64,000 nt of DNA, taken from the NCBI GenBank assembly GCA_965369655.1, contig CBDUQR010000009.1, forward strand, positions 11,480-75,479, written 5' to 3'. Of this stretch, positions 10,732-64,000 are shown in pieces. Below the pieces are notes generated by a model, which was given only the letters and a program-made list of their open reading frames with translations, did no database searches and had not been told where the DNA came from. This DNA comes from an uncultured bacterium (GTDB lineage: Bacteria > Zixibacteria > MSB-5A5 > JAABVY01 > JAHJOQ01). Every line of letters begins with the position of its first letter. Position 1 is the stretch's first letter. The translations under genes were made by a program, and so were the position numbers.

Positions 10732-10788
10732 GTGCTCACAGAGGCTGTGCCTCTGCGTCAATCGTCGGGGCATAGCCCCGACGAGCAC
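10732..10788. repeat. REP doublet, family A (GTGCT-led inverted pair of hairpins)
   Basis: GTGCT-CACAGAGGC-TGT-GCCTCTGCG ... CGTCGGGGC-ATA-GCCCCGACG-AGCAC; same units as those flanking the RAYT gene. Confidence 0.85.
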
Positions 10789-32531: not shown

Positions 32532-32586
32532 GTGCTCGTCGGGGCTATACTCCGACGTTTCGCAGGAGCATAGTTCCTGCGCGCAC
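32532..32586. repeat. REP doublet, family A (slightly degenerate)
   Basis: GTGCT-CGTCGGGGC-TAT-ACTCCGACG ... CGCAGGAGC-ATA-GTTCCTGCG-CGCAC. Confidence 0.8.
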
Positions 32587-48372: not shown

Positions 48373-48447
48373 CGGATATTTTTTCGCGATTATTCCTGTC
48401 AAGTTGCTGAACGATAACCGATAATGAGAGATAGAAAGAAAAATGCC

Positions 48448-48477
48448 TTGACAAAATCCAACACGTAAGAGTATTAT
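48448..48477 (+). promoter_or_regulatory. Possible sigma70-type promoter for mltD
   Basis: TTGACA-N18-TATTAT. Confidence 0.45.
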
Positions 48478-48581
48478 GGCGTTGGCAGTCAAGGAGTTGT
48501 AACTCAGATCCGCCAGTGGATGGCGGACACACTGGGATTCATCACATGTTCAGATGCAGATGCTCTGATTGAGGGGATGAT

Positions 48582-50816
48582 ATGCACAGATTTCATCGCT
48601 TGTCTCCAAAGCTGCTAATTACGCTGGTTGTCCTGACCACTGTTTCCTGCACCAGCAGCAGTATTCGGTTTAGCGAGGAGCCGCAGACAAGCTTTCAACT
48701 GGCCGAAGACACCATGTCAGTCGCACAGACCGCAGTGCCCGACGAAGTCGCAACTGACACCATCTACGCCGACTCATCCCTGCTGGAATACTCCTACGTT
48801 GATGAAGAGCTTCAGTATCAACTGGATCTCGCTGAAGAGAATTACATAATGGGGTATGCGGCCACACTCGACTCAAGCTGGCTGGAAGCGCAGTTCTATT
48901 TCGAGAGCGCGCTGGAGATTCTCGCTGGCCTCGATCTCGATCCGGAAGAGCCGACAGTTGCGGCAGAGTTGTACAACCGCCTTATCAACGAAGTAATTTC
49001 TGACTATAAGAGAACATTACTCCATATCGCTACTCTTCCGGGGGAGAGTTCGCCATCGGCGGTCATTGCCCGCTATGAAGAACTCGACTCGCTGGTGAAT
49101 GGTGAGCAATTTGTAGCGGAGCCGCCGGAGCCGGATACGGTTGTTTTCGATATCCCGATAACATGGAATCAGAGAGTTGAGAATTGTATCAACTATTTCC
49201 AGAATGCCAGTCGGAAGCCGATGGAAGCTGCTTTGAAACGATCAGGCAAGTACCTTCCGATGATGGAGAAGATAATTGCCGAGGAAGGACTCCCACATGA
49301 TCTCGTGTACCTGCCGCTGATCGAGAGCGGTTTCAAGACGACAGCTTACTCCTGGGCGCATGCCGTCGGGCAATGGCAGTTCATTTCGAGCACCGGCAGA
49401 ATATACGGTCTGCATCGGAGCTGGTGGTATGACGAGCGCAGGGATTTCGAGAAATCCACTCGTGCTGCTGCGCGACACCTAAAAGACCTGTATGCAAAAA
49501 CGGACGACTGGTATCTCTCCCTGCTCGGTTATGTTGCCGGCGTGGGGAATGTAAATAAGCTTATCAGGCGCAATAACACGCGTGATTACTTCGAAATGCA
49601 AATCAGAAACAGGGACATGCGAAACTATGTGCCCCTTTATTTGGCTGCGTTGATTATTGCCAAGCAACCTGAGCAATATGGATTCCATATCGAATACGAC
49701 GACCCGATTGTCTTTGACACGGTAACTGTCGGCAGGTGCCTCGCACTCGAGGATATCGCAAAGGCGGTCGGATGTTCGCAAAGTGAACTCAAGGAGTTGA
49801 ATCCCGAACTGCTCCGCAAGTATACGCCTCCCGACAAGAAAAGCTATACGCTGCGCATTCCTCTGAAGAAAAGAGGCAGCTTCTGGGCAGCGTATCCGAA
49901 GATGAAATCGCCGAAAGAGACAAGCTGGGTTCAGCACAAGGTGAGAAAGGGCGAGACAGTCTCGGGTATTGCGCGCAAGTATGGCGTCTCGCAATGGGCG
50001 GTCATTGACGCAAACGGCATGAGGAGACCCTACCGTATCAGCATAGGTCAGAAAGTCATTGTCCCGGTTCCACTCGATGGTTCGGGCACGCAGTATTCCT
50101 CCAAGCGCGAATCACGCGACTACAATCTGACAAGCGGCGCCTATGTAGTCAAACGCGGCGATACGCTGTGGGACCTCGCGAGGGCGTTCGGCACCACGAC
50201 CAAGGCGCTTCGACAACTCAATCGTATAGCTCGCAACGGCAGGATTTACGTTGGACAGAAACTGAAGATACCGGGTGGTGCGACAGGATCAACCATGGCA
50301 TCGACAGGTGGTTCTTCGACATACTCCGGCTCGACCTTCACTTACAGTGTTCGCAAGGGCGACAATCTCTGGGACCTGGCAGAGAAGCACGGAACGACTG
50401 TATCGACCCTCAGGAAACTGAACGGGCTGAATCGTTCCAGCAAGCTCGCGGTTGGGCAGAAGCTGAAGATTCCCGGCTCGGTGAAATCATCGTCGGGAAA
50501 TCAGTACACATACACGGTCAGAAAAGGCGACAATCTCTGGAAGCTGGCGAACCGTAACGGCACGACAATATCGAAACTTCGCAGGATGAACAGTCTTCCC
50601 AAAGGTGCGACGCTGAAGATCGGTCAGAAGTTGAAAATTCCCGGGTCGGGCAAAGTATCGAAGGGGTCTGATTACTATATCGTTCGACGGGGAGACACTC
50701 TTTCATCGATAGCCAAACGTCATGGCTTAAACATGAACACACTCATGGCCTGGAATAGCATTTCGCACCCGGACAGGCTTTCTGTCGGCAGGAAGCTGAG
50801 GGTGTCAACGGACTAA
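48582..50816 (+). CDS. mltD: MltD-like lytic murein transglycosylase with five clear LysM repeats
   Basis: YLPLIESGF, AVGQWQFI, DERRD; five V.KGD.L..LA...G LysM units; lipoprotein-like Cys. Confidence 0.88.
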   Translation: MHRFHRLSPKLLITLVVLTTVSCTSSSIRFSEEPQTSFQLAEDTMSVAQTAVPDEVATDTIYADSSLLEYSYVDEELQYQLDLAEENYIMGYAATLDSSWLEAQFYFESALEILAGLDLDPEEPTVAAELYNRLINEVISDYKRTLLHIATLPGESSPSAVIARYEELDSLVNGEQFVAEPPEPDTVVFDIPITWNQRVENCINYFQNASRKPMEAALKRSGKYLPMMEKIIAEEGLPHDLVYLPLIESGFKTTAYSWAHAVGQWQFISSTGRIYGLHRSWWYDERRDFEKSTRAAARHLKDLYAKTDDWYLSLLGYVAGVGNVNKLIRRNNTRDYFEMQIRNRDMRNYVPLYLAALIIAKQPEQYGFHIEYDDPIVFDTVTVGRCLALEDIAKAVGCSQSELKELNPELLRKYTPPDKKSYTLRIPLKKRGSFWAAYPKMKSPKETSWVQHKVRKGETVSGIARKYGVSQWAVIDANGMRRPYRISIGQKVIVPVPLDGSGTQYSSKRESRDYNLTSGAYVVKRGDTLWDLARAFGTTTKALRQLNRIARNGRIYVGQKLKIPGGATGSTMASTGGSSTYSGSTFTYSVRKGDNLWDLAEKHGTTVSTLRKLNGLNRSSKLAVGQKLKIPGSVKSSSGNQYTYTVRKGDNLWKLANRNGTTISKLRRMNSLPKGATLKIGQKLKIPGSGKVSKGSDYYIVRRGDTLSSIAKRHGLNMNTLMAWNSISHPDRLSVGRKLRVSTD

Positions 50817-50826
50817 GAGGTTACTC

Positions 50827-51720
50827 ATGGCGCGTAAGCGCGACGTTATTGTCGGTCTCATAATCGCTTTCTGTTTTGTGGTCTTTGTCGGGATCATGGC
50901 TGTCGGTCTCATGGAGATGTACGACGGCGGGCAGGACTTCCTGGCATTCGGCGATCGGATTGCTATCGTCGACATCTTCGGAACGATAGAGTCATCTAAA
51001 GATGCAGTCCGGCAGATCAAGAAGTATGGCGATGATGGGTCTGTTGCGGCTATTCTGATTCATCTCGATTCGCCCGGCGGGGGAGTTGCTGCGACTCAGG
51101 AAATATATGACGAGATCTATCGCGTGCGCGTGGAAGAGGAGAAACTCGTGGTTGCATCGATGACGTCGGTCGCAGCTTCGGGAGCGTATTACATCGCCTG
51201 CGCTACGGATATGATTATCGCCAACCCGGGCACGCTTGTTGGATCTATCGGGGTCATCATGCAGTACCCAGTAGTGGGCGAACTGATCAGCAAACTTGGA
51301 GTCAAGTTCGAGACCGTCAAATCGGGCGAGATCAAGGATGTCGGTTCACCTTGGAGAGAGCCTACTGAACGAGACAGGGAGATGCTACAGGCAGCCATTG
51401 ATGACGTATATGAGCAGTTCGTCGAAGCAGTGATGGATGGTCGTGATCTGACGCGTGAAGAGGTCATTGAAGTTGCGGACGGCTCGATATTTACAGGCAG
51501 GCAGGGCGTCGATCTCGGTTTGGTCGACAAGCTCGGGTCATTCGAAGAAGCTATCAGAATCACCGCTGAACTTGCAGGTATCGAGGGTGAGCCGAGGACA
51601 GTCAAGGAAAGGCCGAAAAGGCGAATGAGCATTTTCGATCTGCTGCAGGGCGGGATTGCCGATGTGCTCGAATCGAGCTTTCCAGACACTGGACCTGAGC
51701 TGATGTATCTGTACAAATAG
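50827..51720 (+). CDS. sppA: Signal peptide peptidase SppA (S49, short form)
   Basis: DSPGGG, AASGAYYIA, GSIGVI, KSGEIKD, GLVDKLG. Confidence 0.93.
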   Translation: MARKRDVIVGLIIAFCFVVFVGIMAVGLMEMYDGGQDFLAFGDRIAIVDIFGTIESSKDAVRQIKKYGDDGSVAAILIHLDSPGGGVAATQEIYDEIYRVRVEEEKLVVASMTSVAASGAYYIACATDMIIANPGTLVGSIGVIMQYPVVGELISKLGVKFETVKSGEIKDVGSPWREPTERDREMLQAAIDDVYEQFVEAVMDGRDLTREEVIEVADGSIFTGRQGVDLGLVDKLGSFEEAIRITAELAGIEGEPRTVKERPKRRMSIFDLLQGGIADVLESSFPDTGPELMYLYK

Positions 51721-51796
51721 AACGTGTATGCCGATTTGCGAGGAATGCAAATAGAGGATTCAAGATAACAGCCCATGCCATTGAAGGAGGAGGGAG

Positions 51797-52087
51797 ATGA
51801 CTAAGGCCGATCTGGTCGAACAAGTTGCCGAGAAGACAGGGCTGACTCGTACCGACGTTGCTGTGGTTGTCGATTCGTTTCTCGATACGATCAAGCGAGC
51901 GATGGAAGAAGGTCACAACATCGAGATTCGCGGTTTCGGTACGTTCAAGATCAAGCTCCGTAAGGCAAGGAAGGCGAGGAATCCACGCACCGGCGAAGTG
52001 GTCCCCGTTCCGGACAGGAAGGTGCCCGTGTTCAAGCCCTCGAATGAGTTCAAGAACATGATCACCAAGCTGCCGTTGGAGGAATAG
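51797..52087 (+). CDS. HU/IHF-family DNA-binding protein
   Basis: MTKADLV..IEIRGFGTF..ARNPRTGE..PVFKPS. Confidence 0.95.
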   Translation: MTKADLVEQVAEKTGLTRTDVAVVVDSFLDTIKRAMEEGHNIEIRGFGTFKIKLRKARKARNPRTGEVVPVPDRKVPVFKPSNEFKNMITKLPLEE

Positions 52088-52098
52088 TCAGAAATCGC

Positions 52099-52126
52099 TT
52101 GCGTTTTTCTTGGCGGAGAGTATAAT
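52099..52126 (+). promoter_or_regulatory. Possible sigma70-type promoter for the bS22-like gene
   Basis: TTGCGT-N16-TATAAT. Confidence 0.45.
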
Positions 52127-52179
52127 TACGGATCTGTGACTGGAAAAGGATAGTAGCTTTAAGCTCTTCAGGAGGATAG

Positions 52180-52275
52180 ATGCCTTCAGGCAAGAAACGT
52201 AAGAGACTGAAAATCAAGACTCACAAGAGAAAAAAGAGAAGAAAACGCGACAGGCACAAAAAGAAAATCAGATAG
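52180..52275 (+). CDS. 31-aa basic ribosomal protein, bS22/mS38 (AURKAIP1/COX24)-like; not in the ORF track
   Basis: AGGAGG RBS; MPSGKKRKRLKIKTHKRKKRRKRDRHKKKIR*; followed by a terminator. Confidence 0.88.
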   Translation: MPSGKKRKRLKIKTHKRKKRRKRDRHKKKIR

Positions 52276-52304
52276 CATTCATTATGTGAGTGCCGACTCG
52301 ATAT

Positions 52305-52334
52305 GGGCCGCCGTAAGGCGGCCTTTCTCTCTTT
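52305..52334 (+). terminator. Intrinsic terminator
   Basis: GGCCGCC-GTAA-GGCGGCC followed by TTTCTCTCTTT. Confidence 0.85.
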
Positions 52335-52346
52335 GTCTCAGAAGAT

Positions 52347-52580
52347 TCACGCAGAGTACTTGCTCACGATGTAGTCCTTCTTGCCATCATCCATCACCGG
52401 CAGGTGACGGAATCGGTTCTCGACCATCGTGGCAATCATCACGCCTGCATCATCATCAGGTAATGCGACGATAGGATCTGTCGTCATCAGGCTCCTCACC
52501 TGAGTCTCAGTCAGCGAGCACTCGAGGTCGGAGCAGAACCGCAGAACCTCCGCTTCATTTTCGGTTCATGTAATCACCCG
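52347..52580 (-). pseudogene. CBS-domain gene remnant
   Basis: Minus frame reads VIT*TENEAEVLRF...VRSLMTTDPIVALPDDDAGVMIATMVENRFRHLPVMDDGKKDYIVS; in-frame stop at 52566-52568; no first CBS repeat. Confidence 0.65.
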
Positions 52581-52862
52581 TCGATCTGTTGATCTCGAGT
52601 TTCTCTGACCACAAAGTGGACTTTTTCTATCAATATCAACAAATAGCAATCAATAAAGATTCCAGATTCTATTATTCGGGGGAAAAATTGTCCGACGCTG
52701 GGAAGGTATTTCGTGCATTCTGAAACAGTCCTGAACTCTCTCCATGCACCCAGTTCCATAAGCTGATGATATGTCTGTGGTTACGTATATGTTTCAGGAA
52801 GAAACAATCCGGCACGAGTTTTGTGAAACATCTAAGCAAAACAGTAGATGCCGGAGGAAGGA

Positions 52863-53126
52863 ATGAAATTAAGAATTACAATCGTAGTGAGCCTGATCGC
52901 CTTCATGATAATCATCGTGCCGGCGAACGGGGCCATATTCAAGTGGCTGGGAATTGAGACCTCCGCTCACGGGATGTGCATCGACGATGCTATTTCGACT
53001 CATAGTCCTGAGATATTCAGCAGCAGTCTGGTTGATGTTGGGCCGATGACGGGGATGGATGACATGGATTGTCCTGTCCATCCCCGCGTCAACATCACAC
53101 CGTCGCTCGATATGGAGTTACAGTGA
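52863..53126 (+). CDS. Small exported hypothetical protein
   Basis: GGAGGAAGG RBS; signal-peptide-like MKLRITIVVSLIAFMIIIVPANG. Confidence 0.5.
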   Translation: MKLRITIVVSLIAFMIIIVPANGAIFKWLGIETSAHGMCIDDAISTHSPEIFSSSLVDVGPMTGMDDMDCPVHPRVNITPSLDMELQ

Positions 53127-53338
53127 TGGATACCGTTTTGGGCGAATCAGACAGCATGCTGCTGCATGATATACTGATAGTGCGGGATCATGAGGTCGAG
53201 GGAATACTCGGTGAACTCGTCAGCGAGAACGCCTGCGTCAGCTTTGGCGCTCCGATGGTCGATCTCGCGTGTGATGAGATGGAGTGGCAAAGAGAATATA
53301 TCTGTATAGACAGTGCCTTCAGGATTATGCGATCCTGA
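53126..53338 (+). CDS. Small acidic hypothetical protein (or frameshifted continuation of the previous ORF)
   Basis: ATG overlaps the previous TGA; GGAG upstream. Confidence 0.35.
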   Translation: MDTVLGESDSMLLHDILIVRDHEVEGILGELVSENACVSFGAPMVDLACDEMEWQREYICIDSAFRIMRS

Positions 53339-53494
53339 TTGCGAGGACCGTAGCCTCACAGGCGGCAACCGCCGGTGAGTGACGTATCATACCGCCGAGT
53401 GATTCTCACCCAGGGCCGGAGATATTCTTCGGCCCTAATGTATTTTGCCCTATCGAACATTTGACAACTCGCCGCTGTTGCTTTAATTGTAGTA

Positions 53495-55912
53495 ATGAGA
53501 ATACTTCTCATAAATGTCATACTGCTTACCTTGCTCAGCGCGCAGTCGCTCGGTATCATACTGGAGGGTCGACAGGATTCTATTCCAGCCGTGATGTCTG
53601 CGTTTCTCGATGCGAACCAGATTGGCATGCATGTGTCGAATAACGGTTCGCTCGCTCGCGATGAATCTCGTCAGTATGGCTACTTCAATGGCCTTTACTA
53701 TCCGCTCGATTCGGCTATCACGCTTTTCTATTCCGCCGGTCTGTGGATGACAGCCCAGGTCGATGGCGCTCAGAGAGTCGCCATCGCCGAGTACGCTACC
53801 GAATTCGCACCCGGTCCATACACTCATTATCCTGTCGATGATAGCTCTCTCTTCAAGGTCTACAGGATCAGCAATCAGGATGGTGCGGATACGACCGAGG
53901 ACTGGCTGAACTGGCCTGTCTCATTGGGCGCTCCCGTCGATCCAGACGGCGATCCGTTCGTGAAAGGCGAGCAGAGCGCATGGACTGTATTCAACGACGG
54001 CGATACATCGAGACACACGAGACGCGGCGGCAGCACTCAACCCCTCGGCGCTGAAGTGCAACTCTATGCGTATTCTCTGGCGGATGCCGGCTGGCTCGAT
54101 CATGTCGTCTTTCTCGAATATGTCATCATAAACAGGTCTCCGTCCCGGTGGAGAGACTTTATTGTCGGTATCTGGGCCGATCCGGATGTGGGGATGTATG
54201 CCGATGATTTCGGTGGTTCCGATTCCATTCTGTCGCTGGCTTACTGTTACACTCTCGAGAATGACGCGGAGCTTCCGAGCGGTTTTGAACCTGCTGTCGG
54301 CGTGATGCTGCTCGAATCGCCATCGTCTGCGACTGGTGGTCACCCTTCCGGTGCCGCAAATGTGCTTGTGAACAACTACCGCAGTTCGAGTCCGGAAATG
54401 ACGCTCGATATCCTCGGAGGGCGAGATTTGTCCGGTGATGATTACGTAAATCCTGTCACCGGTGCGATTACCAGGTACAGGTTCACAGGCGATCCGAGGT
54501 CAGGTAATGGCTGGCTTGACTCGGAGGGAAAAGGTGACAGAAGAATATCGATCGCATCTTCGCCTGTCGATGTCGCTCCCGGAGATACTCTAAGGATGAC
54601 CGCGGCGTTCATTGCCGCATCGGGAGAGTCGCTGTTCGAAGCTGTGGATTCTCTGTTCCAGATTGCGCAGACTCTCTATGACTATCACAACTACGGGCTC
54701 TCAGGATCGGCATTCAGCGACAGGGGTATGGACGGCGTCATTCATTCCGTCTCATTCGATCCCCCCGAGCAGCTCTGGTTCGATGGATACGACTGGGGCG
54801 GATCGGCGTTCTCCGGCGGAGTCGGATGGGCTGGCGAACTGTGGGGAACATCGCTCGAACGTGGTGACAATATCGACATTGAAATCGTATTCTCACCCGA
54901 CTCAGGACAGATCGCCGCCAGCTTCGCAGAGTCGAACGGAGTGTACGGATTCAATGAGTTCCGTACCATTCCTTTGACATGCAGGCGATTGAGCGACGGC
55001 GCGCAACTTAACGCAATCTTCCTCGATTCTGATCGTGATGGTTGCTGGAGCGCCTGCGGCGATCCCAACGGCAAGGCTGATATGCTTCTGATCCTGCAAT
55101 CGAGATACGGTCATCGGCCTCTGTCGTCATACATCAGAAGGGTGTTTCCCCGCGATGCTCTCCAGACCGACTTTATGTATGCAGTCTCGCTCACTCTTCG
55201 AGAGCGATATAAGCATCGAAATATCCGCGATGGCCAGCGGCTTGTAATCGCTGTGGTGCCTGTTGAAAAAACTTATCCGCCGTTGTGTCAGGTCTTGATC
55301 CCGTGTGAACGGGATTGTGACCTGACACGCAAGTACACATCAGAAAAGGGCGGCAGGTCGCACAAATCCGCTGGCACGGATTCGCAAGACCTGCCACAAC
55401 AATGCGTCGCTGTCACAGGCGATTCGCTCGGCGGTCGTTCCGACACGTTGAGTGTGGGCGATGTAGTTGTCGGCCAGGAGATCGATCTCCCGTTGTTTCT
55501 TACGAGTCGGTATCGTTATCCCAAGAATGTGCGACTGAATGTCGATCCGCCGGGTCTGTTCAGGTTTTCAGAAAGAGAATTGACGCTCGCGGATACCGCG
55601 ATCCTGAGAGTCGAGTTTGAGCCTCTGGACACAGTTGAATACAGCGTCACAATCACCGCTCTGGCGACTGAAATGAACATGCCGATTGCCGAGGTTGTCC
55701 TGACCGGCAAAGGGACCGCGTGGCCTCTCGAAGGTGATCTCCACCCGGATGGCGCGCTCGACATCAAGGATCTGGTCATGTTTGTTGCCTATCTTTTCGG
55801 TGGAGTAGAGCTGCCGAGAGAGAAAGTTCCCCTCGATATCGATCTATCGGGCGAGGTCAATATCGACGATCTGATACTGCTTGCGAACCGCATTTTCCGC
55901 CCCGCAGGCTGA
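53495..55912 (+). CDS. Secreted protein with Ig-like and C-terminal dockerin-like domains, carrying an in-frame palindromic insertion
   Basis: Signal peptide; WLNWPVSLGAP, GIWADPDVG; GDLHPDGALDIKDLVMFVAYLFGG..DIDLSGEVNIDDL. Confidence 0.8.
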   Translation: MRILLINVILLTLLSAQSLGIILEGRQDSIPAVMSAFLDANQIGMHVSNNGSLARDESRQYGYFNGLYYPLDSAITLFYSAGLWMTAQVDGAQRVAIAEYATEFAPGPYTHYPVDDSSLFKVYRISNQDGADTTEDWLNWPVSLGAPVDPDGDPFVKGEQSAWTVFNDGDTSRHTRRGGSTQPLGAEVQLYAYSLADAGWLDHVVFLEYVIINRSPSRWRDFIVGIWADPDVGMYADDFGGSDSILSLAYCYTLENDAELPSGFEPAVGVMLLESPSSATGGHPSGAANVLVNNYRSSSPEMTLDILGGRDLSGDDYVNPVTGAITRYRFTGDPRSGNGWLDSEGKGDRRISIASSPVDVAPGDTLRMTAAFIAASGESLFEAVDSLFQIAQTLYDYHNYGLSGSAFSDRGMDGVIHSVSFDPPEQLWFDGYDWGGSAFSGGVGWAGELWGTSLERGDNIDIEIVFSPDSGQIAASFAESNGVYGFNEFRTIPLTCRRLSDGAQLNAIFLDSDRDGCWSACGDPNGKADMLLILQSRYGHRPLSSYIRRVFPRDALQTDFMYAVSLTLRERYKHRNIRDGQRLVIAVVPVEKTYPPLCQVLIPCERDCDLTRKYTSEKGGRSHKSAGTDSQDLPQQCVAVTGDSLGGRSDTLSVGDVVVGQEIDLPLFLTSRYRYPKNVRLNVDPPGLFRFSERELTLADTAILRVEFEPLDTVEYSVTITALATEMNMPIAEVVLTGKGTAWPLEGDLHPDGALDIKDLVMFVAYLFGGVELPREKVPLDIDLSGEVNIDDLILLANRIFRPAG
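55255..55413. mobile_element. 159-bp in-frame palindromic insertion (family D doublet) with 7-bp direct repeat
   Basis: TCGCTGT at 55248-55254 and 55407-55413; TGTTGAAAAA at 55261; two inverted hairpins at 55282-55328 and 55352-55400, both starting GTTGTGKCAGGTCTTG. Confidence 0.7.
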
Positions 55913-55989
55913 TTTTCTGCCGAAGTATCTCCGGCACCCCCTTGACTGGTATACCTCTTGCGTGTTATACTGGTACAGGTTTCTTGGCT

Positions 55990-56859
55990 ATGATTAGACA
56001 TGTATTGATCTTCATGCTGCTGTTGAGCTTGGCGGCGGGCGCCAGTTCGGCAAGAATTCTCAGTCCGGCTGAGTATGTTAATAATCTGCATACGACTGCA
56101 TATGTCTGGGTTGCTCCACAGGCAGAATCAAGTAATCAACTGAAAATCGAAACAGCGATTTCAAATCGATCGGATCGTAACAAGTATGCCGCGCTGATCG
56201 GCGTTCATGCCGCAGCCGCCTACCCGTTGTATAAAGAGCTTACCAGTATGTGGGGAGTACCGAGCGGGAAATTCCACATAAAGGCGGAGACAGCCGACTA
56301 TATGCTTTTCAACGACGAAGTCTCGCACCTGTTTATAAGCTACAAACTGAGCCAGGGATTCGAGTCGGTCTATCGCAGGGTCGGATTCTCAGACAACAGG
56401 GCGAGAGCGCTCGGAGTCATCGAGGCTGCCGTGATAATGACGGCTGTCGAATATCCGCTCGACGCGTACAATCCGAGCCAGGGATTCGGCGCTACGGATC
56501 TGATCGCCGATTATGCCGGGATTGCGCTTGCATACTGGAAATCGACAGATTCTCGATTATCGAACTTCGATCTCAAAGTCAGCATGAAAGCGATATCGGG
56601 CGGCGGTCGCGTGGGTCTCGCTTATGACAACGAGGATTATGACAACTACGTCTACTGGATGACCTACAGGTATCGGTTCGCAATTGCCGGATTTGGCTAC
56701 AGCACACGTCGGGATTCACCGATCGATCCTGAATCGCAGGGATTCATCGGGGTAGGAACCACCATTCCGGACCTTGTCGGAGTCGTCTCCGACAGGGCCG
56801 CATCGTTTCTACGACCGCTCGAACTCTATTTTATCAATTTCCACATCAGTGCTTTTTGA
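55990..56859 (+). CDS. YfiM/DUF2279-like exported protein
   Basis: DEVSHLFISY..EYPLDAY...GFGATDLIAD..G..DYDNYVYW pattern; signal peptide. Confidence 0.6.
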   Translation: MIRHVLIFMLLLSLAAGASSARILSPAEYVNNLHTTAYVWVAPQAESSNQLKIETAISNRSDRNKYAALIGVHAAAAYPLYKELTSMWGVPSGKFHIKAETADYMLFNDEVSHLFISYKLSQGFESVYRRVGFSDNRARALGVIEAAVIMTAVEYPLDAYNPSQGFGATDLIADYAGIALAYWKSTDSRLSNFDLKVSMKAISGGGRVGLAYDNEDYDNYVYWMTYRYRFAIAGFGYSTRRDSPIDPESQGFIGVGTTIPDLVGVVSDRAASFLRPLELYFINFHISAF

Positions 56860-56871
56860 TTAAAGAGATAT

Positions 56872-56921
56872 GTGCTCGTAGGGGCTATGCCCCGACGCTA
56901 CGCAGGAGCTGTGCTCCTGCG
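56872..56921. repeat. Family A REP pair downstream of RAYT
   Basis: GTGCT-CGTAGGGGC-TAT-GCCCCGACG and CGCAGGAGC-TGT-GCTCCTGCG. Confidence 0.85.
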
Positions 56922-56926
56922 AAGAT

Positions 56927-57409
56927 TTACTCTACGAATAGGTCAGTCTTAACTCGATAAGATGATTCACCATTCAGCCAGTTAGAGGCTGAGGAATATG
57001 GCCAATCGGTTGGGTTCTTCACATGGCCGGCTCGGACCGGATTATCGTGTATGTAGCGAAGTTTGACATTGAACACCTTTTCAGAATATATTGCGACATC
57101 ATCGAAACCGTTCTGCCAGATACTCCCACGTCCTTTGAACAGTCGTAATGCAACAGACATCTTGAAATCTCGCATGAAGTTGGACAGTGCCTTACCGCCA
57201 GTCGGTATATGAAGTAACAGGTGTAAATGGTTCTTCATTAGAACATAACCGAGAAGCTCGACTGAATGACGCTCCACGGAATAGAAAAGTATTTTCTGTA
57301 CCGCTCTCAGAGTTTCCTCATTGCAGAAGAGAGGTTGATGTTTGCGTGTACTTGTCGTGACGAAGAAGACTGAATAATTGTCGAGTTTGTATCTTCCTCT
57401 GAGTGCCAT
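56927..57409 (-). mobile_element. REP-associated tyrosine transposase (RAYT/TnpA-REP, IS200-like HUH Y1)
   Basis: FFVTTST, YVLMKNHLHLL (HUH), IWQNGFDD, YIHDNPVRAG, WPYSS; flanked on both sides by REP hairpins. Confidence 0.92.
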
Positions 57410-57432
57410 GTTCTATTCTTTTCACTTTGAAT

Positions 57433-57537
57433 CGCAGGGGCACAGCCCCTGCGAGCACAGTAAGCTACCCCACTAAAGTTGTGTTCGTCGGGGCTGTGCC
57501 CCGACGTAAAGCGCAGAGGCATAGCCTCTGCGTACAC
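57433..57537. repeat. Three family A REP hairpins upstream of RAYT
   Basis: CGCAGGGGC-ACA-GCCCCTGCG-AGCAC; GTGTT-CGTCGGGGC-TGT-GCCCCGACG; CGCAGAGGC-ATA-GCCTCTGCG-TACAC. Confidence 0.88.
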
Positions 57538-57547
57538 AAGAAACAGA

Positions 57548-57817
57548 TTATTGCTGGTTTACTGGTTCCTCGTCAGGTCGAGATCGCTTGTCAGGCGGGT
57601 TCGAGAACATCAGCCTGATCAAGCGCGGGAGCGCAAAGGCGACGATTACAAGAATGATCTTTGGGATGGGGATCTCGGATGGGTTCTCCATGATATCCGC
57701 AGCCTTGCCAAAATACTCGCCCAATTCGAGTTTGCCGTCGAACGGGTCGCCGACCAGGTCGTTGTAACTCACATAAAAGACCGTGAGTATGATGGCTGCG
57801 ATGAATACTGCTCTCAT
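57548..57817 (-). CDS. Small membrane hypothetical protein
   Basis: Two hydrophobic segments; host-like codon usage; alternative GTG start at 57826. Confidence 0.55.
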   Translation of the reverse strand: MRAVFIAAIILTVFYVSYNDLVGDPFDGKLELGEYFGKAADIMENPSEIPIPKIILVIVAFALPRLIRLMFSNPPDKRSRPDEEPVNQQ

Positions 57818-58082
57818 GGTTTCCACACTGTCAAACTGCTGAATCTATATACAATCAAATGCCATGCCGACTGAAAAAGCGGCGAGCGGCGAAGGCCTGC
57901 TCAGTGTTAGGCATGTAGTTACAAATTGAGGTAACACTATTATACTAATGTGTTCCGCTCTGGGACGCAAGAAGATTCATATTACTTCTTGCAGAATTCA
58001 CATATTATCAGATAAGACAAGCATCGTTTTGCACTTGACCCAGCAATATTGACAGCTAAATTGCCGCGAGAATGGAGGCAGT

Positions 58083-58496
58083 ATGAAATCACACACAGAA
58101 TATCTCTGGTTCAACACGAAGAATCGACGGGAGTATATCAACATTACCGACAAGGTTGAGGATGCTCTCGCCAAATCTGGCATCCGGGAAGGTCTGGCAT
58201 TTGTCGGAGCTATGCATATAACAGCTGCGGTGTATATCAACGACGCCGAATCGGGACTCATCGAGGATATCGATGAATGGCTCGATGGTCTCGCGCCTTA
58301 CGGCAAGGACTACCGACATCATCGGACCGGCGAGGACAACGGTGATGCGCATCTGAAAAACCTGTTGATCCACAATCAGGTATTGATTCCGGTCACTGAC
58401 GGCAAACTCGATTTCGGACCGTGGCAGCAAGTATACTATGCGGAATTCGACGGTCGCAGGCGCAAGAGAGCGATAATCAAGATTATTGGGGAGTAA
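58083..58496 (+). CDS. yjbQ: YjbQ/UPF0047 family protein
   Basis: [46 protein letters not shown]. Confidence 0.92.
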
Positions 58497-58501
58497 GTAC
58501 A

Positions 58502-60001
58502 TTGACGCACTTCCAGCGATTGATCGCATTCCTGTCATCTTTTGCGAGAGACTCGGTGCTGCTTCGAGTTTCAGAGGCGAGCCGTTATCTGTACAATGAG
58601 AATCAGACGATATTGGATGTGGACTCGAAACCAGTATCGAAGCATTGTCTCAGACTCATTGCGGAGCTTTTGCTATTGAAGTGTAAGACGGAAGCCTTTA
58701 AGTTGTTCACGTTGGATGACTTGGCACAAGCCGCCAACATACTGAGTAAAGTTGACGATGATATGGCTGTAGATATGCAGAGAGCATATGGAAAGGATGC
58801 AGATCGGCTGATTGTATACAATGTGGCCAGATTGCAATTCCCTTCTCAGCATCAGTTTAGGTATGTGTTGCCGCGAATGAAATTGATGTACAGCGAGCTT
58901 TCGGGCAGGATGACCGGGGGAGATGATCTTATCGATGAAGCGTTCCGCGGTGCATTCGGAGTGTCTCAACAGGAGTTTCTTGACTGCTTCTTTGTGTTGT
59001 CAACGATATTGGCTCAGAGAGTACCATTTCGATTCAGCAAGGGTATGTTACGACAAATAGTGCCAGCACCGATTACTGGGACAATAGAAACCTTGATCAA
59101 TAACATCGCTGTCCCTCTGAGTGATTGCGCTAACGAAGCTGCAAATGATGATTCACTGCATGATTGGGAGTTCATATACAAGAGCACATTGCTCGTGGAT
59201 CATCCAATCATCATTGATGATGAGGGTGCTTACATGTGTCCTGATATTAACGCGCTTGCAGTAGGGTTGGTGCACGGTCTGCATTCCCGTATCTTCAAGA
59301 GCTTCCCCGATGCTACCAAGAGGCAAGAATTCGGAAATCGCTTTGGGGACGTCTTTCAATGGTATGTGGGAATTCAGTTAGGGCAGTACCTCAACAATCA
59401 GGGCGACCTGCACGAGGAATTCGACATAGGAACTGGTTGGAAGTCAATCGACTGGATCATGAAGCAGGGCTCGACTTGTATTCTGATCGAGTGCAAAAGC
59501 GGGAGAGACAAACTTCCAGGAGTAGCACGCCCGAAGAGGGTAGAGGATTTCTTGTCGAAGAGAGGTGGAATCGCGGACGGTCTAGCTAAATGCAAGAAGA
59601 CTGAGGACTATATCAGACGACTAAGTCGGATCGGCAGTAAGGCGATCAATCCACCTAAAGAATTTCGTTATGTGATTGTTTCGAATGAGTGCCCATATCT
59701 ACGAGAGGATGTTTATCCATATGTGATTGATGGACTATCAGATAACCATAGACTCACTATGACGCATTTCTTGACCTTAGACGAGATTGAGATGATTTCT
59801 CCGCTTTTGGCAAATAGGACGTTCACAGAGGTTCTCAGGGCTGTAGAAGAGAACAGGAGTTTGGTTCTCAACGATATCAGGGTTGTACTTCGTAAGTGCT
59901 TCGGCGAGGAATTTATAAATTCGCGGAATGATATGCTGGAGAGAGAGTTTGATAAGACATTCAAAAGTTCTGATTTCAACATGCGTGTTTTCGGAGAGTA
60001 G
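58502..60001 (+). CDS. Orphan AT-rich protein with C-terminal PD-(D/E)XK-like nuclease motif
   Basis: About 500-codon ORF; FGDVFQWYV...IDWIMKQGSTCILIECKS; start uncertain (TTG 58502). Confidence 0.6.
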   Translation: MTHFQRLIAFLSSFARDSVLLRVSEASRYLYNENQTILDVDSKPVSKHCLRLIAELLLLKCKTEAFKLFTLDDLAQAANILSKVDDDMAVDMQRAYGKDADRLIVYNVARLQFPSQHQFRYVLPRMKLMYSELSGRMTGGDDLIDEAFRGAFGVSQQEFLDCFFVLSTILAQRVPFRFSKGMLRQIVPAPITGTIETLINNIAVPLSDCANEAANDDSLHDWEFIYKSTLLVDHPIIIDDEGAYMCPDINALAVGLVHGLHSRIFKSFPDATKRQEFGNRFGDVFQWYVGIQLGQYLNNQGDLHEEFDIGTGWKSIDWIMKQGSTCILIECKSGRDKLPGVARPKRVEDFLSKRGGIADGLAKCKKTEDYIRRLSRIGSKAINPPKEFRYVIVSNECPYLREDVYPYVIDGLSDNHRLTMTHFLTLDEIEMISPLLANRTFTEVLRAVEENRSLVLNDIRVVLRKCFGEEFINSRNDMLEREFDKTFKSSDFNMRVFGE

Positions 60002-60072
60002 CTGTTATCAGCGGAACATGGGCAAACTATAAAAGGTGCGAACACAGTGAAACATGCTAACCGCATAGTTGT

Positions 60073-60100
60073 TTTACAAAATCGAGAGAACTGGTATAAT
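60073..60100 (+). promoter_or_regulatory. Sigma70-type extended -10 promoter for nadA
   Basis: TTTACA-N16-TATAAT with a TGn extension. Confidence 0.55.
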
Positions 60101-60125
60101 TTGTTATGATGTCGAGCAGGACAGT

Positions 60126-61217
60126 ATGGCAGTAACATTTAACATGATCCCCGATGAATATCGACTCGCGACCGATGACGATATGACATCGCGGATTCTT
60201 GCACGAAAGGCCGAACTCGGCGACAGGCTGGTGCTGCTTGCGCATCACTATCAGCGCAGGGAGATAGTGGCGCTCGGCGATCATGCGGGCGATTCTTATG
60301 CCCTCTCGAAAATCGCATCACAGCAGGATGCTGAGTATATTGTCTTTTGCGGGGTTCTTTTTATGGCTGAATCGGCGGAGATATTGTCTCAGCCGTATCA
60401 GAAAGTGTATCTGCCGAATCCGCTCGCTGGGTGTCCGATGGCGGACATGGCGCAAATCGGAAATGTTCTTTATGCGTGGGATGCACTGAACAAAGCTGTG
60501 CCTGATTCTAAAATTATCCCGATTTCATACATGAATTCCACCGCTGATCTCAAGGCGTTCTGCGGCAGGAATAATGGCGCCGTATGTACTTCATCGAATG
60601 CGGACAAAGCGTTCAGGTGGGCGTTCGATCGCGGCGAGAAAATTTTCTTCTTTCCGGATGAGCATCTTGGCACAAACACCGCAAATGCACTTGGCATTCC
60701 AAAGGACGAGCTTGCGATCTGGGATTACAGAGACCGGAAGCTCGGTGGAAACAGCATCTCGGACTTGAAGCGCGCCAGAGTCATCCTGTGGAAAGGATAC
60801 TGCCATGTCCATACTATGTTCAGGCCGGAGCATATCGAGGAAATGCGCAGAGAGCATCCTGATGTGCAGATCATAGTCCATCCGGAATGTCCGGAGGATG
60901 TCGTGCAGGCAGCCGATGCGAGCGGTTCCACAACATTCATCGTCGAGTATGTGACCAACGCGCCGCCCGGATCGAGCATTGCGATCGGCACGGAGGTGAA
61001 CCTTGTCGACCGGCTCGCGCACACGTTTCCTGACAAGAAAATATATGAACTCTCCGGTAACACCTGTGCGATGTGCGTGAACATGTATCGAACGACGCTC
61101 AACGATCTCGCATGGTGCCTGGAGAACCTTGACGCGATTCCAACCATCACAGTTCCCGACGATGTGATCGACAACGCACGAGTGGCATTGTCCAGAATGC
61201 TCGAAATCCAGGGTTGA
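60126..61217 (+). CDS. nadA: Quinolinate synthase
   Basis: [49 protein letters not shown]. Confidence 0.97.
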
Positions 61218-61261
61218 TGCTCAGCACTCGATTTGTATTCGAGTAGGGCAGTTGCCCCCGA

Positions 61262-61539
61262 CACCTGCTGATTCTCTGTTCCCATTTTTTTGTTTCACGA
61301 CACAATGAAGCAACATCAGGTATCCGTCGGTTCAGGCATTGCTTCGTTAACACACTCAGTTCGATCTCAGCGATGCTCAACCAACTACCATGTTTCGGCG
61401 TATAATGGACTTCCAGACGCTTTGACAGTTGCAACGCAACCGAAGGAGAAAACGCCTTGTACAACGACGCTGTTTTATGCGTGTTCAAATTATCGCATAC
61501 CAGAACAACTTTCTCCGCATCGGGATAATCTTTTTCCAA
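61262..61539 (-). pseudogene. IS630-family transposase C-terminal fragment
   Basis: [17 protein letters not shown]...[30 protein letters not shown]-terminal part absent. Confidence 0.85.
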
Positions 61540-61653
61540 TCCCTCAGGATCCCTTTCCCTCAGGATCCCCTTCCCTCAGGATCGGGATCGGCGACCGACG
61601 CGGATCGGGGTCCAGAAGGACGGGATCGGCGACCGACGGTCGCTCGCAATGAC
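61540..61653. repeat. Short tandem and direct repeats plus one arm of the GTCATTGCGAG element
   Basis: TCCCTCAGGATC x3 (16-bp period); CGGGATCGGCGACCGACG x2; CGGTCGCTCGCAATGAC is the reverse complement of 27472-27488. Confidence 0.75.
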
Positions 61654-61742
61654 GGCAAAATCCAACGGCAACTTGGAATATCATGTCAACAGCTTTCTCA
61701 ACAAGCCCCTTACATGCAATAGCTTATCCATGATTTCAGGGC

Positions 61743-61769
61743 TTTAGCAGTTGCGCGATCTGCCGATAA
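61743..61769 (+). promoter_or_regulatory. Possible sigma28 (FliA)-type promoter for motAB
   Basis: TTTA-N15-GCCGATAA (perfect -10 element). Confidence 0.55.
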
Positions 61770-61823
61770 CCTATCTTGAAGGGCGCATGCTGCGTCATTC
61801 GTGCAACGGGGATGGTCTATCCA

Positions 61824-62585
61824 ATGGATATTGCCACACTTGGCGGTCTCGTGATCGGCGTATCAGCCGTGATAATCGCATTTGTCATGGAGGGCGGCAA
61901 CCTAGGCATGGTCGTGCAGGCGCCGGCTATGCTGCTGGTACTCGTCGGCACTCTTGGCGCCGCAACGATAACGACGTCTTTCAGCACGGTCGCCAGGATT
62001 CCGACATTTTTGCGGATTGCTCTGTCGGGATCGAAAAATGATTCGATGACAATGATCAATGAGATCGTCAGGATGGCGGAGCGAGCTCGCAGGGAGGGAA
62101 TCCTTGGCCTGGAACAGCATCTTGACTCGATCCGCGATCCGTTCTTCATGAACGCCATACGCCTTGTGGTGGATGGAACCGAAGTGACATCGCTGCGGGA
62201 TATCCTCGAAACGGAGATGACATATATCACCGAGCGGCACAAAGCGGGCATTATGCTCTTCAGGAAACTCGGCGGCTTCTCGCCTACGTTGGGAATCATC
62301 GGTACTGTCCTGGGTCTGATTCATGCGCTGGCGAGCTCCGGTGACGCCTCGAAGATGGCATCCGCAATAGCTATCGCTTTCATTGCAACACTCTGGGGCA
62401 TCGGTATGGCAAATCTGTTCTACCTTCCCATCAGCGACAAACTTCGCCATCGACACGAGGAGGAGATGTTCAAGCTCCAGATGATCACCGACGGAGTCGT
62501 GGCGATACAATCCGGCGACAATCCGAGGATGATTCGTACGAAGCTGCTCTCGTTCATGAATTCCAGTATTCGCGGAGATTACTAA
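61824..62585 (+). CDS. motA: Flagellar stator protein MotA
   Basis: EGGNL..., ARREGILGLE, LVVDG, SPTLGIIGTVLGLI, AFIATLWG, IQSGDNPR. Confidence 0.93.
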   Translation: MDIATLGGLVIGVSAVIIAFVMEGGNLGMVVQAPAMLLVLVGTLGAATITTSFSTVARIPTFLRIALSGSKNDSMTMINEIVRMAERARREGILGLEQHLDSIRDPFFMNAIRLVVDGTEVTSLRDILETEMTYITERHKAGIMLFRKLGGFSPTLGIIGTVLGLIHALASSGDASKMASAIAIAFIATLWGIGMANLFYLPISDKLRHRHEEEMFKLQMITDGVVAIQSGDNPRMIRTKLLSFMNSSIRGDY

Positions 62586-62587
62586 AC

Positions 62588-63445
62588 TTGGCTTTCAAGA
62601 AAGAGATCGACGACCAGGAGAACTCCGAACGCTGGCTCCTGACCTACGCTGATCTTATCACGCTGCTGCTCGCGTTTTTCATAGTCATGTATTCCATGTC
62701 GCAGATCGACGCCAAGAAATTCGGCCAGATGAAAACCCAGCTATCGAGCGTATTGCGAGGGGGGAATACTATTTTCCCGCAGGGTCAGGACGTCGACAAT
62801 GATGGCTCCGGGCTGCTCAAAATTGGCGATCTCCACATGATTCAGAAACGCATCCGCGCGAAGTTCTCGCTTCAGGGCGACTATCGATTTATTCAGACTG
62901 GCGAAGGCCCAGGTCTGAATAGGAATATCGCCGATGCGGTCACGAGCGAGATTGGAGAGAGAGGGCTGACGATTCGGATCAAGGACTACGCGCTCTTTGA
63001 ATCCGGCAAGGCGAACCTGAGAGCCGAAGCGCTTGATGTGCTCGAAGCAATCGCGGATGAGGTCACCGCTTCCGGCAATCATATTTGCATTGAAGGACAT
63101 ACCGACAATCTTCCGATAAACACGCAGAAGTTCCCGTCCAATTGGGAGCTGTCAACCGCGCGGTCGACAAGTGTGCTGCGCTATCTTGTCGAGAAAAAGG
63201 GATTCAGTCCTGACAAGATCTCCGCGAGGGGTTTCGGTGAGTTCCGGCCTATTGCCTCGAATGCTACCGATGTTGGAAGGTCTCGGAATCGCAGGGTCGA
63301 TATTGTCCTCTTGTCCGACATACTCTCATCCGTAGAACCGCGACCGCAGGATCGGGTAGCAGAGAGTATCCCCGAAAACCTCCGGATTGATCGTGTCGAT
63401 ACTCTGGAGATCGCGACCGTGCCCGCTGACAGACTTGACCAATAG
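62588..63445 (+). CDS. motB: Flagellar stator protein MotB
   Basis: ERWLLTYADLITLLLAFFIVMYSMS; EGHTDN, SNWELSTAR, NRRVDI OmpA-like domain. Confidence 0.93.
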   Translation: MAFKKEIDDQENSERWLLTYADLITLLLAFFIVMYSMSQIDAKKFGQMKTQLSSVLRGGNTIFPQGQDVDNDGSGLLKIGDLHMIQKRIRAKFSLQGDYRFIQTGEGPGLNRNIADAVTSEIGERGLTIRIKDYALFESGKANLRAEALDVLEAIADEVTASGNHICIEGHTDNLPINTQKFPSNWELSTARSTSVLRYLVEKKGFSPDKISARGFGEFRPIASNATDVGRSRNRRVDIVLLSDILSSVEPRPQDRVAESIPENLRIDRVDTLEIATVPADRLDQ

Positions 63446-63512
63446 GTTACGTTATCAGAACCCGTAAAATGTCAGGATATCGGTATTGCGGCAGAAGAGC
63501 CTCAATACAAAA

Positions 63513-63543
63513 CAGAGGGCGCGCGATTTCCGCGCGCCCTCTG
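63513..63543. terminator. Hairpin terminator between convergent genes
   Basis: CAGAGGGCGCGCG-ATTTC-CGCGCGCCCTCTG; preceding AAAA gives a U-tract on the minus strand. Confidence 0.8.
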
Positions 63544-63563
63544 AAAATACGTCTGGATGATAA

Positions 63564-64000
63564 CTATTTCACCAGTATCATCTTCTTCGTCTCCGAGCCG
63601 TCATCGCTCTCAAATTTGTAGAAGTAGACGCCTGTAGGCACCAGCTTTCCGTCGCTGTCGACGCCTTCCCAGTATGCGGTGTGAGGTCCCACACCCATCG
63701 CTTCATCTACCAGAGTCTTCACTTTTTGTCCGAGACTGTTGAAGACAGTGATTGTCACGTGCGACTTTTTGTGCATCGTGTACTCGATGACTGTCGATGG
63801 GTTGAATGGATTCGGATGGTTCTGACTGAGAGTAAAGGATTTTGGTCTTGTCGGCTCGCCGTCAACCGGATCGGCTGGTGTACCTGAATCGAATCCGTAG
63901 TGGACAGGCAGGAAATACTCGAGCAAGAGTGTTGTTTGACCGTCGTCCCACATCTGGAACTGCACCGAATCGACAATGACTTCGCCCGATGTCACTGTGA
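63564..64000 (-). CDS. C-terminus of a secreted protein with FlgD-Ig/T9SS-like domain (partial)
   Basis: FTLSQNHPNPFNPST...GVYFYK..KKMILVK; frame runs to the window edge. Confidence 0.85.
   Translation of the reverse strand, partial: TVTSGEVIVDSVQFQMWDDGQTTLLLEYFLPVHYGFDSGTPADPVDGEPTRPKSFTLSQNHPNPFNPSTVIEYTMHKKSHVTITVFNSLGQKVKTLVDEAMGVGPHTAYWEGVDSDGKLVPTGVYFYKFESDDGSETKKMILVK

Follow-up and report, generated by a model that had tools for sequence, protein, structure and literature searches.

The window (the whole stretch of 64,000 nucleotides analysed here) very probably contains a REPtron, in which a resident, single-copy and domesticated RAYT (a single-stranded DNA nuclease) goes together with a cognate REP family and occasionally spreads its doublets. 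The RAYT gene is flanked by five REP hairpins (Table 1), and the source genome (G000; 2.99 Mb in 100 contigs) carries members of this family at about 40 scattered sites, most of them intergenic and most occupied by head-to-head doublets. A sequence-only reading of the window had proposed a REP-RAYT system, and the family profile, the fold and the genome-wide REPs all agree with this proposal.

The gene encodes a RAYT/TnpA-REP protein. Its frame is unbroken, and the intact 160-aa HUH Y1 protein reported from the letters alone was recovered with its HUH motif (N60-H61-L62-H63), the catalytic Y119, N123 and a guide-contact region (WQNGFDDVAIY, residues 98-108). The protein scores 113.6 bits against the NCBIfam model NF047646 (REP_Tyr_transpos; cut-off 80) and 21.4 bits against the IS200 model NF033573 (below the cut-off of 55), and it also matches Pfam PF01797. 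The best phmmer match among solved structures is E. coli TnpA-REP (4ER8, E 1.5e-10), which is also the top Foldseek match (TM 0.73) of the predicted model (pLDDT 89.9). H61, H63, Y119 and N123 are invariant across 19 aligned relatives, and NHLH together with YIHDNP gives the Class 2 signature of RAYT/TnpA-REP proteins. The gene is single copy in G000, where four other PF01797 loci are found, none with a family REP unit nearby. No tnpB was found beside it by ORF, Pfam and NCBIfam checks, and the 92-aa ORF to its right has no Pfam or NCBIfam match.

Table 1. Features of the REPtron, its neighbouring genes and dispersed doublets in the window.
Feature	Position	Strand	Evidence or remark
REP unit 1: GTGC-T leader, CGTC-type stem with one mismatch, TAT loop	56872..56897	+	Outer REP past RAYT 3' end
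REP unit 2: CGCA-type perfect hairpin, leaderless	56901..56921	+	Comparison with G001
REP unit 3: GTGC-T-led perfect hairpin, pointing into RAYT gene	57433..57458	-	Ends 23 nt upstream of start codon
Units 4 and 5: compact head-to-head heterodimer, 57 bp, 5-nt spacer	57481..57537	.	Sequence, folding
RAYT/TnpA-REP gene, 160 aa	56927..57409	-	Profile, fold, motifs
DUF2279 protein gene, left neighbour, synteny landmark outside element	55942..56859	+	PF10043; syntenic in G001-G004
92-aa ORF, right neighbour, family not assigned, not tnpB, landmark	57548..57826	-	Homologues at same place in G003, G004
Dispersed compact heterodimer of GTGC/TRT family, 57 bp	10732..10788	.	Long-type doublet instead in matching gap of G001
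Dispersed compact heterodimer of GTGC/TRT family, 55 bp, decayed	32532..32586	.	Missing from orthologous gap of G001

Two other observations were made at this locus. A sigma-70-like site (11/12 consensus, a consensus match only) lies antisense within the RAYT gene at 57063-57092 (+), with a G001 counterpart of 10/12 by eye, and could provide antisense control. Further to the right, a 526-aa ORF (58421-60001, +) has a weak likeness to antiphage GapS1 (58.4 bits vs a cut-off of 320); it lies between yjbQ and a gene that we take to be nadA, is missing from the matching gap of G003, and is a possible defence gene insertion.

The five flanking hairpins (9-bp stem, 3-nt loop, 9-bp stem) start at 56877, 56901, 57433, 57486 and 57512, and each of them folds alone (-7.9 to -12 kcal/mol as DNA). 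All five are where the sequence-only reading had placed them, as are the two dispersed doublets that it listed, although hairpin 1 is mismatched and hairpin 2 has no leader. In the compact heterodimer, unit 4 is GTGT-T-led, CGTC-type and on the (+) strand, and unit 5 is GTGT-A-led, CGCA-type and on the (-) strand. At the place of unit 2, G001 has a REP, an inverted REP, a spacer and then a GTGT-A-led hairpin; because G001 retains this leader, unit 2 appears to have lost its own by deletion. It is probably a deletion hybrid of the inverted REP and the gene-proximal REP, joined via their identical arms, as we infer from this comparison.

With a pattern selecting on stem and loop only, the genome-wide search that the earlier reading had suggested identified 54 REP units in G000 and none in each of three order-4 Markov simulations. 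A broader pattern gave 67 units, of which 17 are unpaired (many beside a decayed partner) and the others form 25 head-to-head doublets; a reversed-pattern control had no match in any of 41 genomes. The units are intergenic in the main: 10 of the 67 fall within mechanically called ORFs of 150 aa or more, as compared to 85% of random 26-mers. The leader, to which the first selection is blind, is GTGC in 44 of the 54 units and GTGT in four; none carries GTAG or GTGG, which places the family outside the canonical GT[AG]G definition of REPs. Base 4 of the leader is C in 46/54 units and base 5 is T in 27/54. In 32 of the 67 units (19.2 +/- 3.5 in shuffles, none of 5000 reaching 32), base 5 is paired with the base that follows the right arm, and base 4 is paired in just seven. 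Since base 5 is often paired and base 4 rarely, the REP unit is best described as GTGC followed by a 9-10-bp stem with a TRT loop, and the GTGYT leader given by the earlier reading is ruled out. Also ruled out is membership in the CGTC-tagged REP class, as CGTC is paired within the stem and occurs in one subtype only.

Covariation of the stems was assessed with 68 matches chosen by leader, left arm and loop only, which avoids circularity. At least six of the nine pairs are formed in 62 of the 68 matches, with a mean of 8.45 pairs as compared to 6.68 +/- 0.15 with shuffled partners (maximum of 7.23 in 2000 shuffles). Two-sided changes are seen at stem positions 2, 3, 4, 6 and 7, and G-T pairs also occur, notably at position 6 of long doublets. 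The covariation is therefore real, but the claim that the family conserves structure rather than sequence was overstated, as positions 1, 5, 8 and 9 are nearly fixed. What the stems record is a few subtypes copied many times, rather than many independent events; palindrome template switching can also yield paired stem changes. The TRT loop was seen in this family alone, and the REPs of relatives have 4-nt loops, mostly NCCY.

Besides the GTGC/TRT family, G000 contains at least four more REP-like families. They include GTGG/GTGC-led GCGGCAGA hairpins (79 matches), a GTGA-led family (24) and two GTAG-led families (16 and 11). The GCGGCAGA hairpins match the flanks of sister-clade RAYTs (L013, L191, L192, L194); no such RAYT was found in G000, and its copies are possibly orphan REPs. 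Hairpins with a TGTCAGGTC core occur in a repeat of about 120 bp at 55270-55400 of the window, in frame inside an 805-aa ORF (53495-55912), with 22 other BLAST matches in G000 and raised depth in all three runs; such hairpins also flank the RAYT at G000:C37:15076-15477. RAYT fragments were found at G000:C5:13535-13726 (a near copy of the C-terminal half of the C37 RAYT) and C53:8153-8269, and a further PF01797 match lies at G000:C23:20496-20732, within a 1072-aa open frame.

Among the 25 doublets, 17 are compact (54-57 bp), all pairing a CGTC-type with a CGCA-type stem, and eight are long (75-94 bp) with a common spacer. Each consists of two REPs in inverted orientation with the leaders facing outward, and they are dispersed as units, which is the makeup of REPINs. 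The compact inverted doublets were thus correctly noticed in the window, while compactness is a common REP feature according to the available text of Di Nocera 2013 (PMC3733652). In G001, many long doublets sit within an inverted-repeat shell of GGGCTTGTTGAAAAA type, which has itself inserted into CGTC-type hairpins and seems to be accompanied by duplications of 4 bp. In G000, TIR-like ends adjoin about six of the eight long doublets by eye (three under a strict pattern), and none of the 17 compact doublets has one within 60 nt. The 93-bp long doublets probably also spread as cargo of TIR-bounded MITEs, independently of the RAYT, judging by this arrangement. We note that GGGCTTGTTGAAAAA-type ends are present at 46-56 sites of G000 with varied interiors, including six inward-facing pairs, and that inspection by eye of eight long ORFs near TIR-like ends gave no obvious candidate for an autonomous transposase. 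One G001 site (L210, contig C538) is a four-layer nest of an apparent GTGG/GTGC REP remnant, a CGTC-type hairpin, a TIR shell and a long GTGC doublet; the matching gap at G000:C2:29592 is empty.

The REP pattern was found in four of 41 genomes (G000, 51 matches; G001, 60; G003, 14; G005, 15), and a looser pattern in four of 285 genomes of the phylum, all from one family. A close RAYT orthologue was found in G001 only, which is the only same-genus genome compared and whose contig ends inside the gene; it occupies the same site by the DUF2279 gene, carries the same REPs and is 82% identical over residues 45-159. This answers the question raised by the sequence-only reading about the flanks of the closest homologue, and gives a single-copy RAYT at a conserved site as far as one same-genus genome can show. 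In G002, G003 and G004 (three other genera), nothing matching the RAYT lies between DUF2279 and yjbQ, and protein and profile queries found no close RAYT in G003 (100% complete) or G005 (79%). As G003 and G005 hold 14-16 related REP units each, the family can persist or spread without a close RAYT gene being detected. None of 15 other RAYT-like loci examined in G001-G005 has a GTGC/TRT family unit.

REP sites turn over between the two species of the genus. For this comparison we used 44 unit clusters of G001, in 40 regions chosen for having flanks (of 60 matches); 30 of the 44 had no two-sided match, two 'span' matches were repeats, and the remaining 12 fall in 10 gaps matched on both flanks, eight of which have no unit in G000. 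Conversely, out of five G000 sites, one is common to G001, one is missing there, one has a different doublet and two are uninformative. The intergenic DNA of the two species is too diverged and repeat-layered to give exact empty-site boundaries.

The RAYT gene is under purifying selection, with a dN/dS of 0.24 over 115 codons against the G001 orthologue. Its dS (0.36) is far under that of three neighbour genes (0.95-1.56; 74-80% identical between the two species), which does not fit purely vertical descent. Another protein (P0001) equals the window RAYT over residues 1-128, and its last 32 residues are closer to the G001 allele. This mosaic and the low dS hint at allele exchange at the locus, or at a chimeric assembly, so the RAYT may be resident and selected yet exchanged among strains. 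Contigs from three runs of one study, compared over window positions 44001-64000, contained no joint skipping the REPtron (such contigs show presence, not absence), and viral contigs had no exact match to the REP pattern.

A quick tree of 136 proteins (SH-aLRT support only; short rows and three weak ones excluded; no named subclass 2.6 member included) places the RAYT in a group of 32 rows with support of 97, nearly all from the same phylum. This clade is marked by the motif WxxRFDD[VLF] and mostly lacks H101 and R104 of the E. coli enzyme; in the alignment with 4ER8, W99, E100, H101 and R104 correspond to D103, D104, V105 and Y108. According to the available part of Messing 2012 (PMC3479197), W99 is placed between guide bases T2 and A3, and that of Quentin 2018 (PMC6006769) puts W94, Q95, E100, H101 and R104 in the guide-contact region. 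We scanned the flanks of 30 of the 32 clade loci (60 gene sides) without requiring a leader: 18 sides have no hairpin, and at 35 of the 42 hairpin-bearing sides GTG stands 13-14 nt ahead of the loop of the inward-pointing hairpin closest to the gene. When GT[AG] was required, the clade leaders were GTGC (25), GTGT (10), GTGG (8), GTGA (2) and GTAG (1), whereas ten hand-picked RAYTs with R104 retained have GTAG (14) and GTGG (1) at their flanks. At four loci (L009, L010, L011, L013), the two sides of the gene have different leader bases at position 4, and in relatives with 13-nt arms leader bases 3 and 4 pair with the right arm. These alignments and leaders suggest a clade that may tolerate any fourth guide base, with W99, H101 and mostly R104 replaced. 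As the contrast sets one clade against others, and two clade members keep an Arg at the R104 site and have GTG leaders, it is suggestive of co-evolution and no proof of it. Six clade members (L169, L171, L172, L173, L180, L187), among them the best-scoring ones of family f8, have no clear hairpin near the gene and may be RAYTs that lost their REPs.

By analogy with the enzymes of E. coli, Stenotrophomonas and Marinomonas, the RAYT would bind the folded single strand that bears the GTGC foot and the TRT loop, and not its complement, nick single-stranded DNA through a phosphotyrosine at Y119, and rejoin strands, with the occasional result that a REP doublet is copied into a new intergenic site. 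Less firmly, the cut dinucleotide would be set by pairing with the guide. For the Marinomonas enzyme, the available text of Corneloup 2021 (PMC8266576) gives cuts at CT and CA with a GTAG guide, at CC and CA with GTGG, and at GA and GT with GTAC. This rule predicts GC (through bases 3-4) or GA (through bases 2 and 4) for GTGC, and not CT; in the same source, attempts to re-programme the guide did not succeed with the enzymes of E. coli and Stenotrophomonas. That the cut site of the window RAYT follows the guide is conceivable by this analogy, with the balance leaning somewhat against it. In 30 of 58 units (7.9 expected), TC closely precedes the leader, at -4/-3 or -3/-2, and would read GA just 3' of an inverted REP. 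It also occurs in 6/11 units of a GTAG family, but in only 4/21 of another GTGC family, and other families have pyrimidine-rich flanks too; with similar flanks elsewhere, the TC flank is not a specific test of a GA cut.

The guide itself may be shorter or shifted. It is a tentative alternative that the true guide is H-GTG (starting one base upstream), or GT or GTG only, with base 4 free or part of the stem and a cut site that need not follow it (e.g. CA). The absence of G at -1 in all 67 units, the differing fourth bases on the two flanks of single genes and the pairing of bases 3 and 4 in the 13-nt-arm relatives are in line with this, while the prevalence of an unpaired C at base 4 (46/54 units) and the variation of base -1 (T, C or A) speak for GTGC. 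As for dispersal, the two RAYT-bearing genomes are the richest in units (51 and 60 vs 14 and 15), the RAYT is intact with a dN/dS of 0.24, and TIR-like ends are absent from the compact doublets (0/17 within 60 nt). For these reasons we consider it unlikely that the REPs are for the most part relics, or are spread by TIR-bounded MITEs or repeat recombination, with the RAYT adjacent by ancestry and no longer driving dispersal. Such a scenario would account for the GGGCTTGTTGAAAAA-type shells and apparent 4-bp duplications around the long doublets of G001, the TIR-like ends at long doublets of G000 (about 6/8 by eye, 3 strict) and the units of G003 and G005 that have no detected cognate RAYT.

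Much the same facts bear on whether the gene is a mobile IS200-like element, with the hairpins as its ends and the dispersed doublets as internally deleted MITEs. Inverted, inward-pointing hairpins enclose the gene here and clade-wide, the corresponding gap of G002, G003 and G004 lacks the gene, its dS is low against its neighbours, and the P0001 mosaic suggests allele exchange. We nevertheless hold an IS200-like element to be very unlikely, given a single copy at the same position in two species whose neighbour genes are 74-80% identical, a YxxNP rather than YxxxQ motif, an NF033573 score under the cut-off, no adjoining tnpB and no exact REP match in viral contigs. An IS200 end, which the sequence-only reading had named as one possible identity of the motif, is ruled out by the profile score and the single copy. 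Just as improbable in our view is that the hairpins are kept as RNA elements (for mRNA stability or attenuation), the covariation reflecting selection on RNA structure or quasi-palindrome template switching. Such roles are raised for REPs generally in the available text of Di Nocera 2013 (PMC3733652), and the mostly intergenic units and the G-T pairs would suit them; yet a strand-specific unpaired leader with a fixed loop is what recognition of single-stranded DNA would lead one to expect, the sites turn over between species, and we found no terminator-like match and no Rfam match at the gathering score (one was at chance level). An RNA role is compatible with the REPtron as a secondary function.

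With the REPtron as the preferred reading, the system can be compared to known ones. It shares with E. coli TnpA-REP (4ER8; Quentin subclass 2.2, Bertels group 2) the HUH/Y1 fold (TM 0.73), YxxNP, a single REP-flanked gene and dispersed heterodimeric doublets, as in REP/BIME. It differs in its 24% identity, in short, perfect, bulge-less stems, in GTGC instead of GTAG, and in D103, V105 and Y108 replacing W99, H101 and R104. Group 3 / subclass 2.5 REPtrons (Stenotrophomonas Sm and Marinomonas Mb), as far as described in the available text of Corneloup 2021 (PMC8266576), also have REPs that are short and perfectly palindromic, with a small, fixed loop and a leader that stands 0-2 nt away from the stem (leader and stem together span 10-13 nt in subclass 2.5, vs 13-14 nt here); unlike the window RAYT (NHLH, YIHDNP, leader GTGC), they have DH[LF]H and YI[VI]ANP. 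Compared to IS200/IS605 TnpA (IS608, ISDra2), the catalytic core and the subterminal hairpins with 5' guides are alike, while TM is about 0.5, the IS200 score is under the cut-off, and the window RAYT is single copy, without tnpB and YxxxQ.

Judged by motifs, the nearest relative would be subclass 2.6 (Bertels group 5), without its insertion. As described in the available part of Quentin 2018 (PMC6006769), this subclass shares NH[LIV]H, WQ and the SS tail, has YIH[QN]NP (one position off YIHDNP), and has REPs with 'atypical secondary structures' and feet other than GT[AG]G that nonetheless recur elsewhere in the genome; REP-like repeats are reported there for other RAYT subclasses too. The window RAYT lacks the insertion of about 21 aa between alphaC and beta4 (160 aa vs a median of 179), which is present in some of its relatives of 172-184 aa, and it differs from subclass 2.6 by its WxxRFDD motif and its phylum. 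The stem is in no row of Table S1 that was covered, including 60 of the 68 subclass 2.6 rows. That table, as covered, shows GTGC feet beside ADY59338.1, ADY58178.1 and ADW68597.1 and a GGC-TGT-GCC apex beside AEV32941.1, with at least seven GTGC, six GGTGC and two GGGTGC cells, all but one being feet, in subclasses 2.1, 2.2 and 2.6. The idea of a different guide motif therefore holds in that the leader departs from GT[AG]G, and has to be qualified in that such feet, beside subclass 2.2 and 2.6 RAYTs, partly match the motif. For group 5, the accessible text of Bertels 2017 (10.1101/119735) reports 16-mers as frequent as those of IS elements.

The GTAG- and CGTC-tagged superfamilies in the available text of Di Nocera 2013 (PMC3733652) likewise have 6-13-bp stems, subfamilies with alternative complementary bases, dimers (including heterodimers) 1-5 bp or 20-100 bp apart, and dimers inside GGG..GAAAaACC-type palindromes. 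By that description their tag varies at positions 2 and 3 (GYAG, GTRG and others), not 4, and CGTC is an unpaired tag there and part of the stem here. The type of system, the GTGC feet, the compact dimers and the heterodimers are thus already known, in the parts of these two sources covered (PMC6006769, PMC3733652). We found no published description of the GTGC/TRT family or of the WxxRFDD clade in the literature reachable without most subscription journals, nor any paper reporting such systems from this little-studied phylum, in agreement with the sequence-only reading. What seems new is the clade-wide GTG-N leader together with altered guide-contact residues.

How REPs spread is an unresolved question in the field. 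The enzymes assayed are GTAG-guided in the available text of Messing 2012 (PMC3479197) and Corneloup 2021 (PMC8266576), and in the latter guide-directed choice of the cut was shown by mutating one flexible enzyme only; a natural GTGC system, in a clade with a variable fourth guide base, is a ready test of the guide rule. The doublets bear on the claim, in the accessible text of Bertels and Rainey (10.1101/2021.07.10.451892), that REPINs are found only with group 2 and 3 RAYTs. Apart from the guide question, this is one among several REP families in a repeat-rich genome. We put forward, as a speculation more likely wrong than right, that an undescribed, phylum-wide WxxRFDD[VLF] clade lost its contacts with the last guide base, such that GTG-N leaders drift and naturally re-programme the single-stranded DNA cut site (to GC or GA here). 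If true, the clade would be a naturally occurring set of alleles with which guide-directed choice of the cut site in REP mobility could be tested. It would also supply a compact, DNA-programmable single-stranded DNA nuclease that drives true REPINs beyond Bertels groups 2 and 3.
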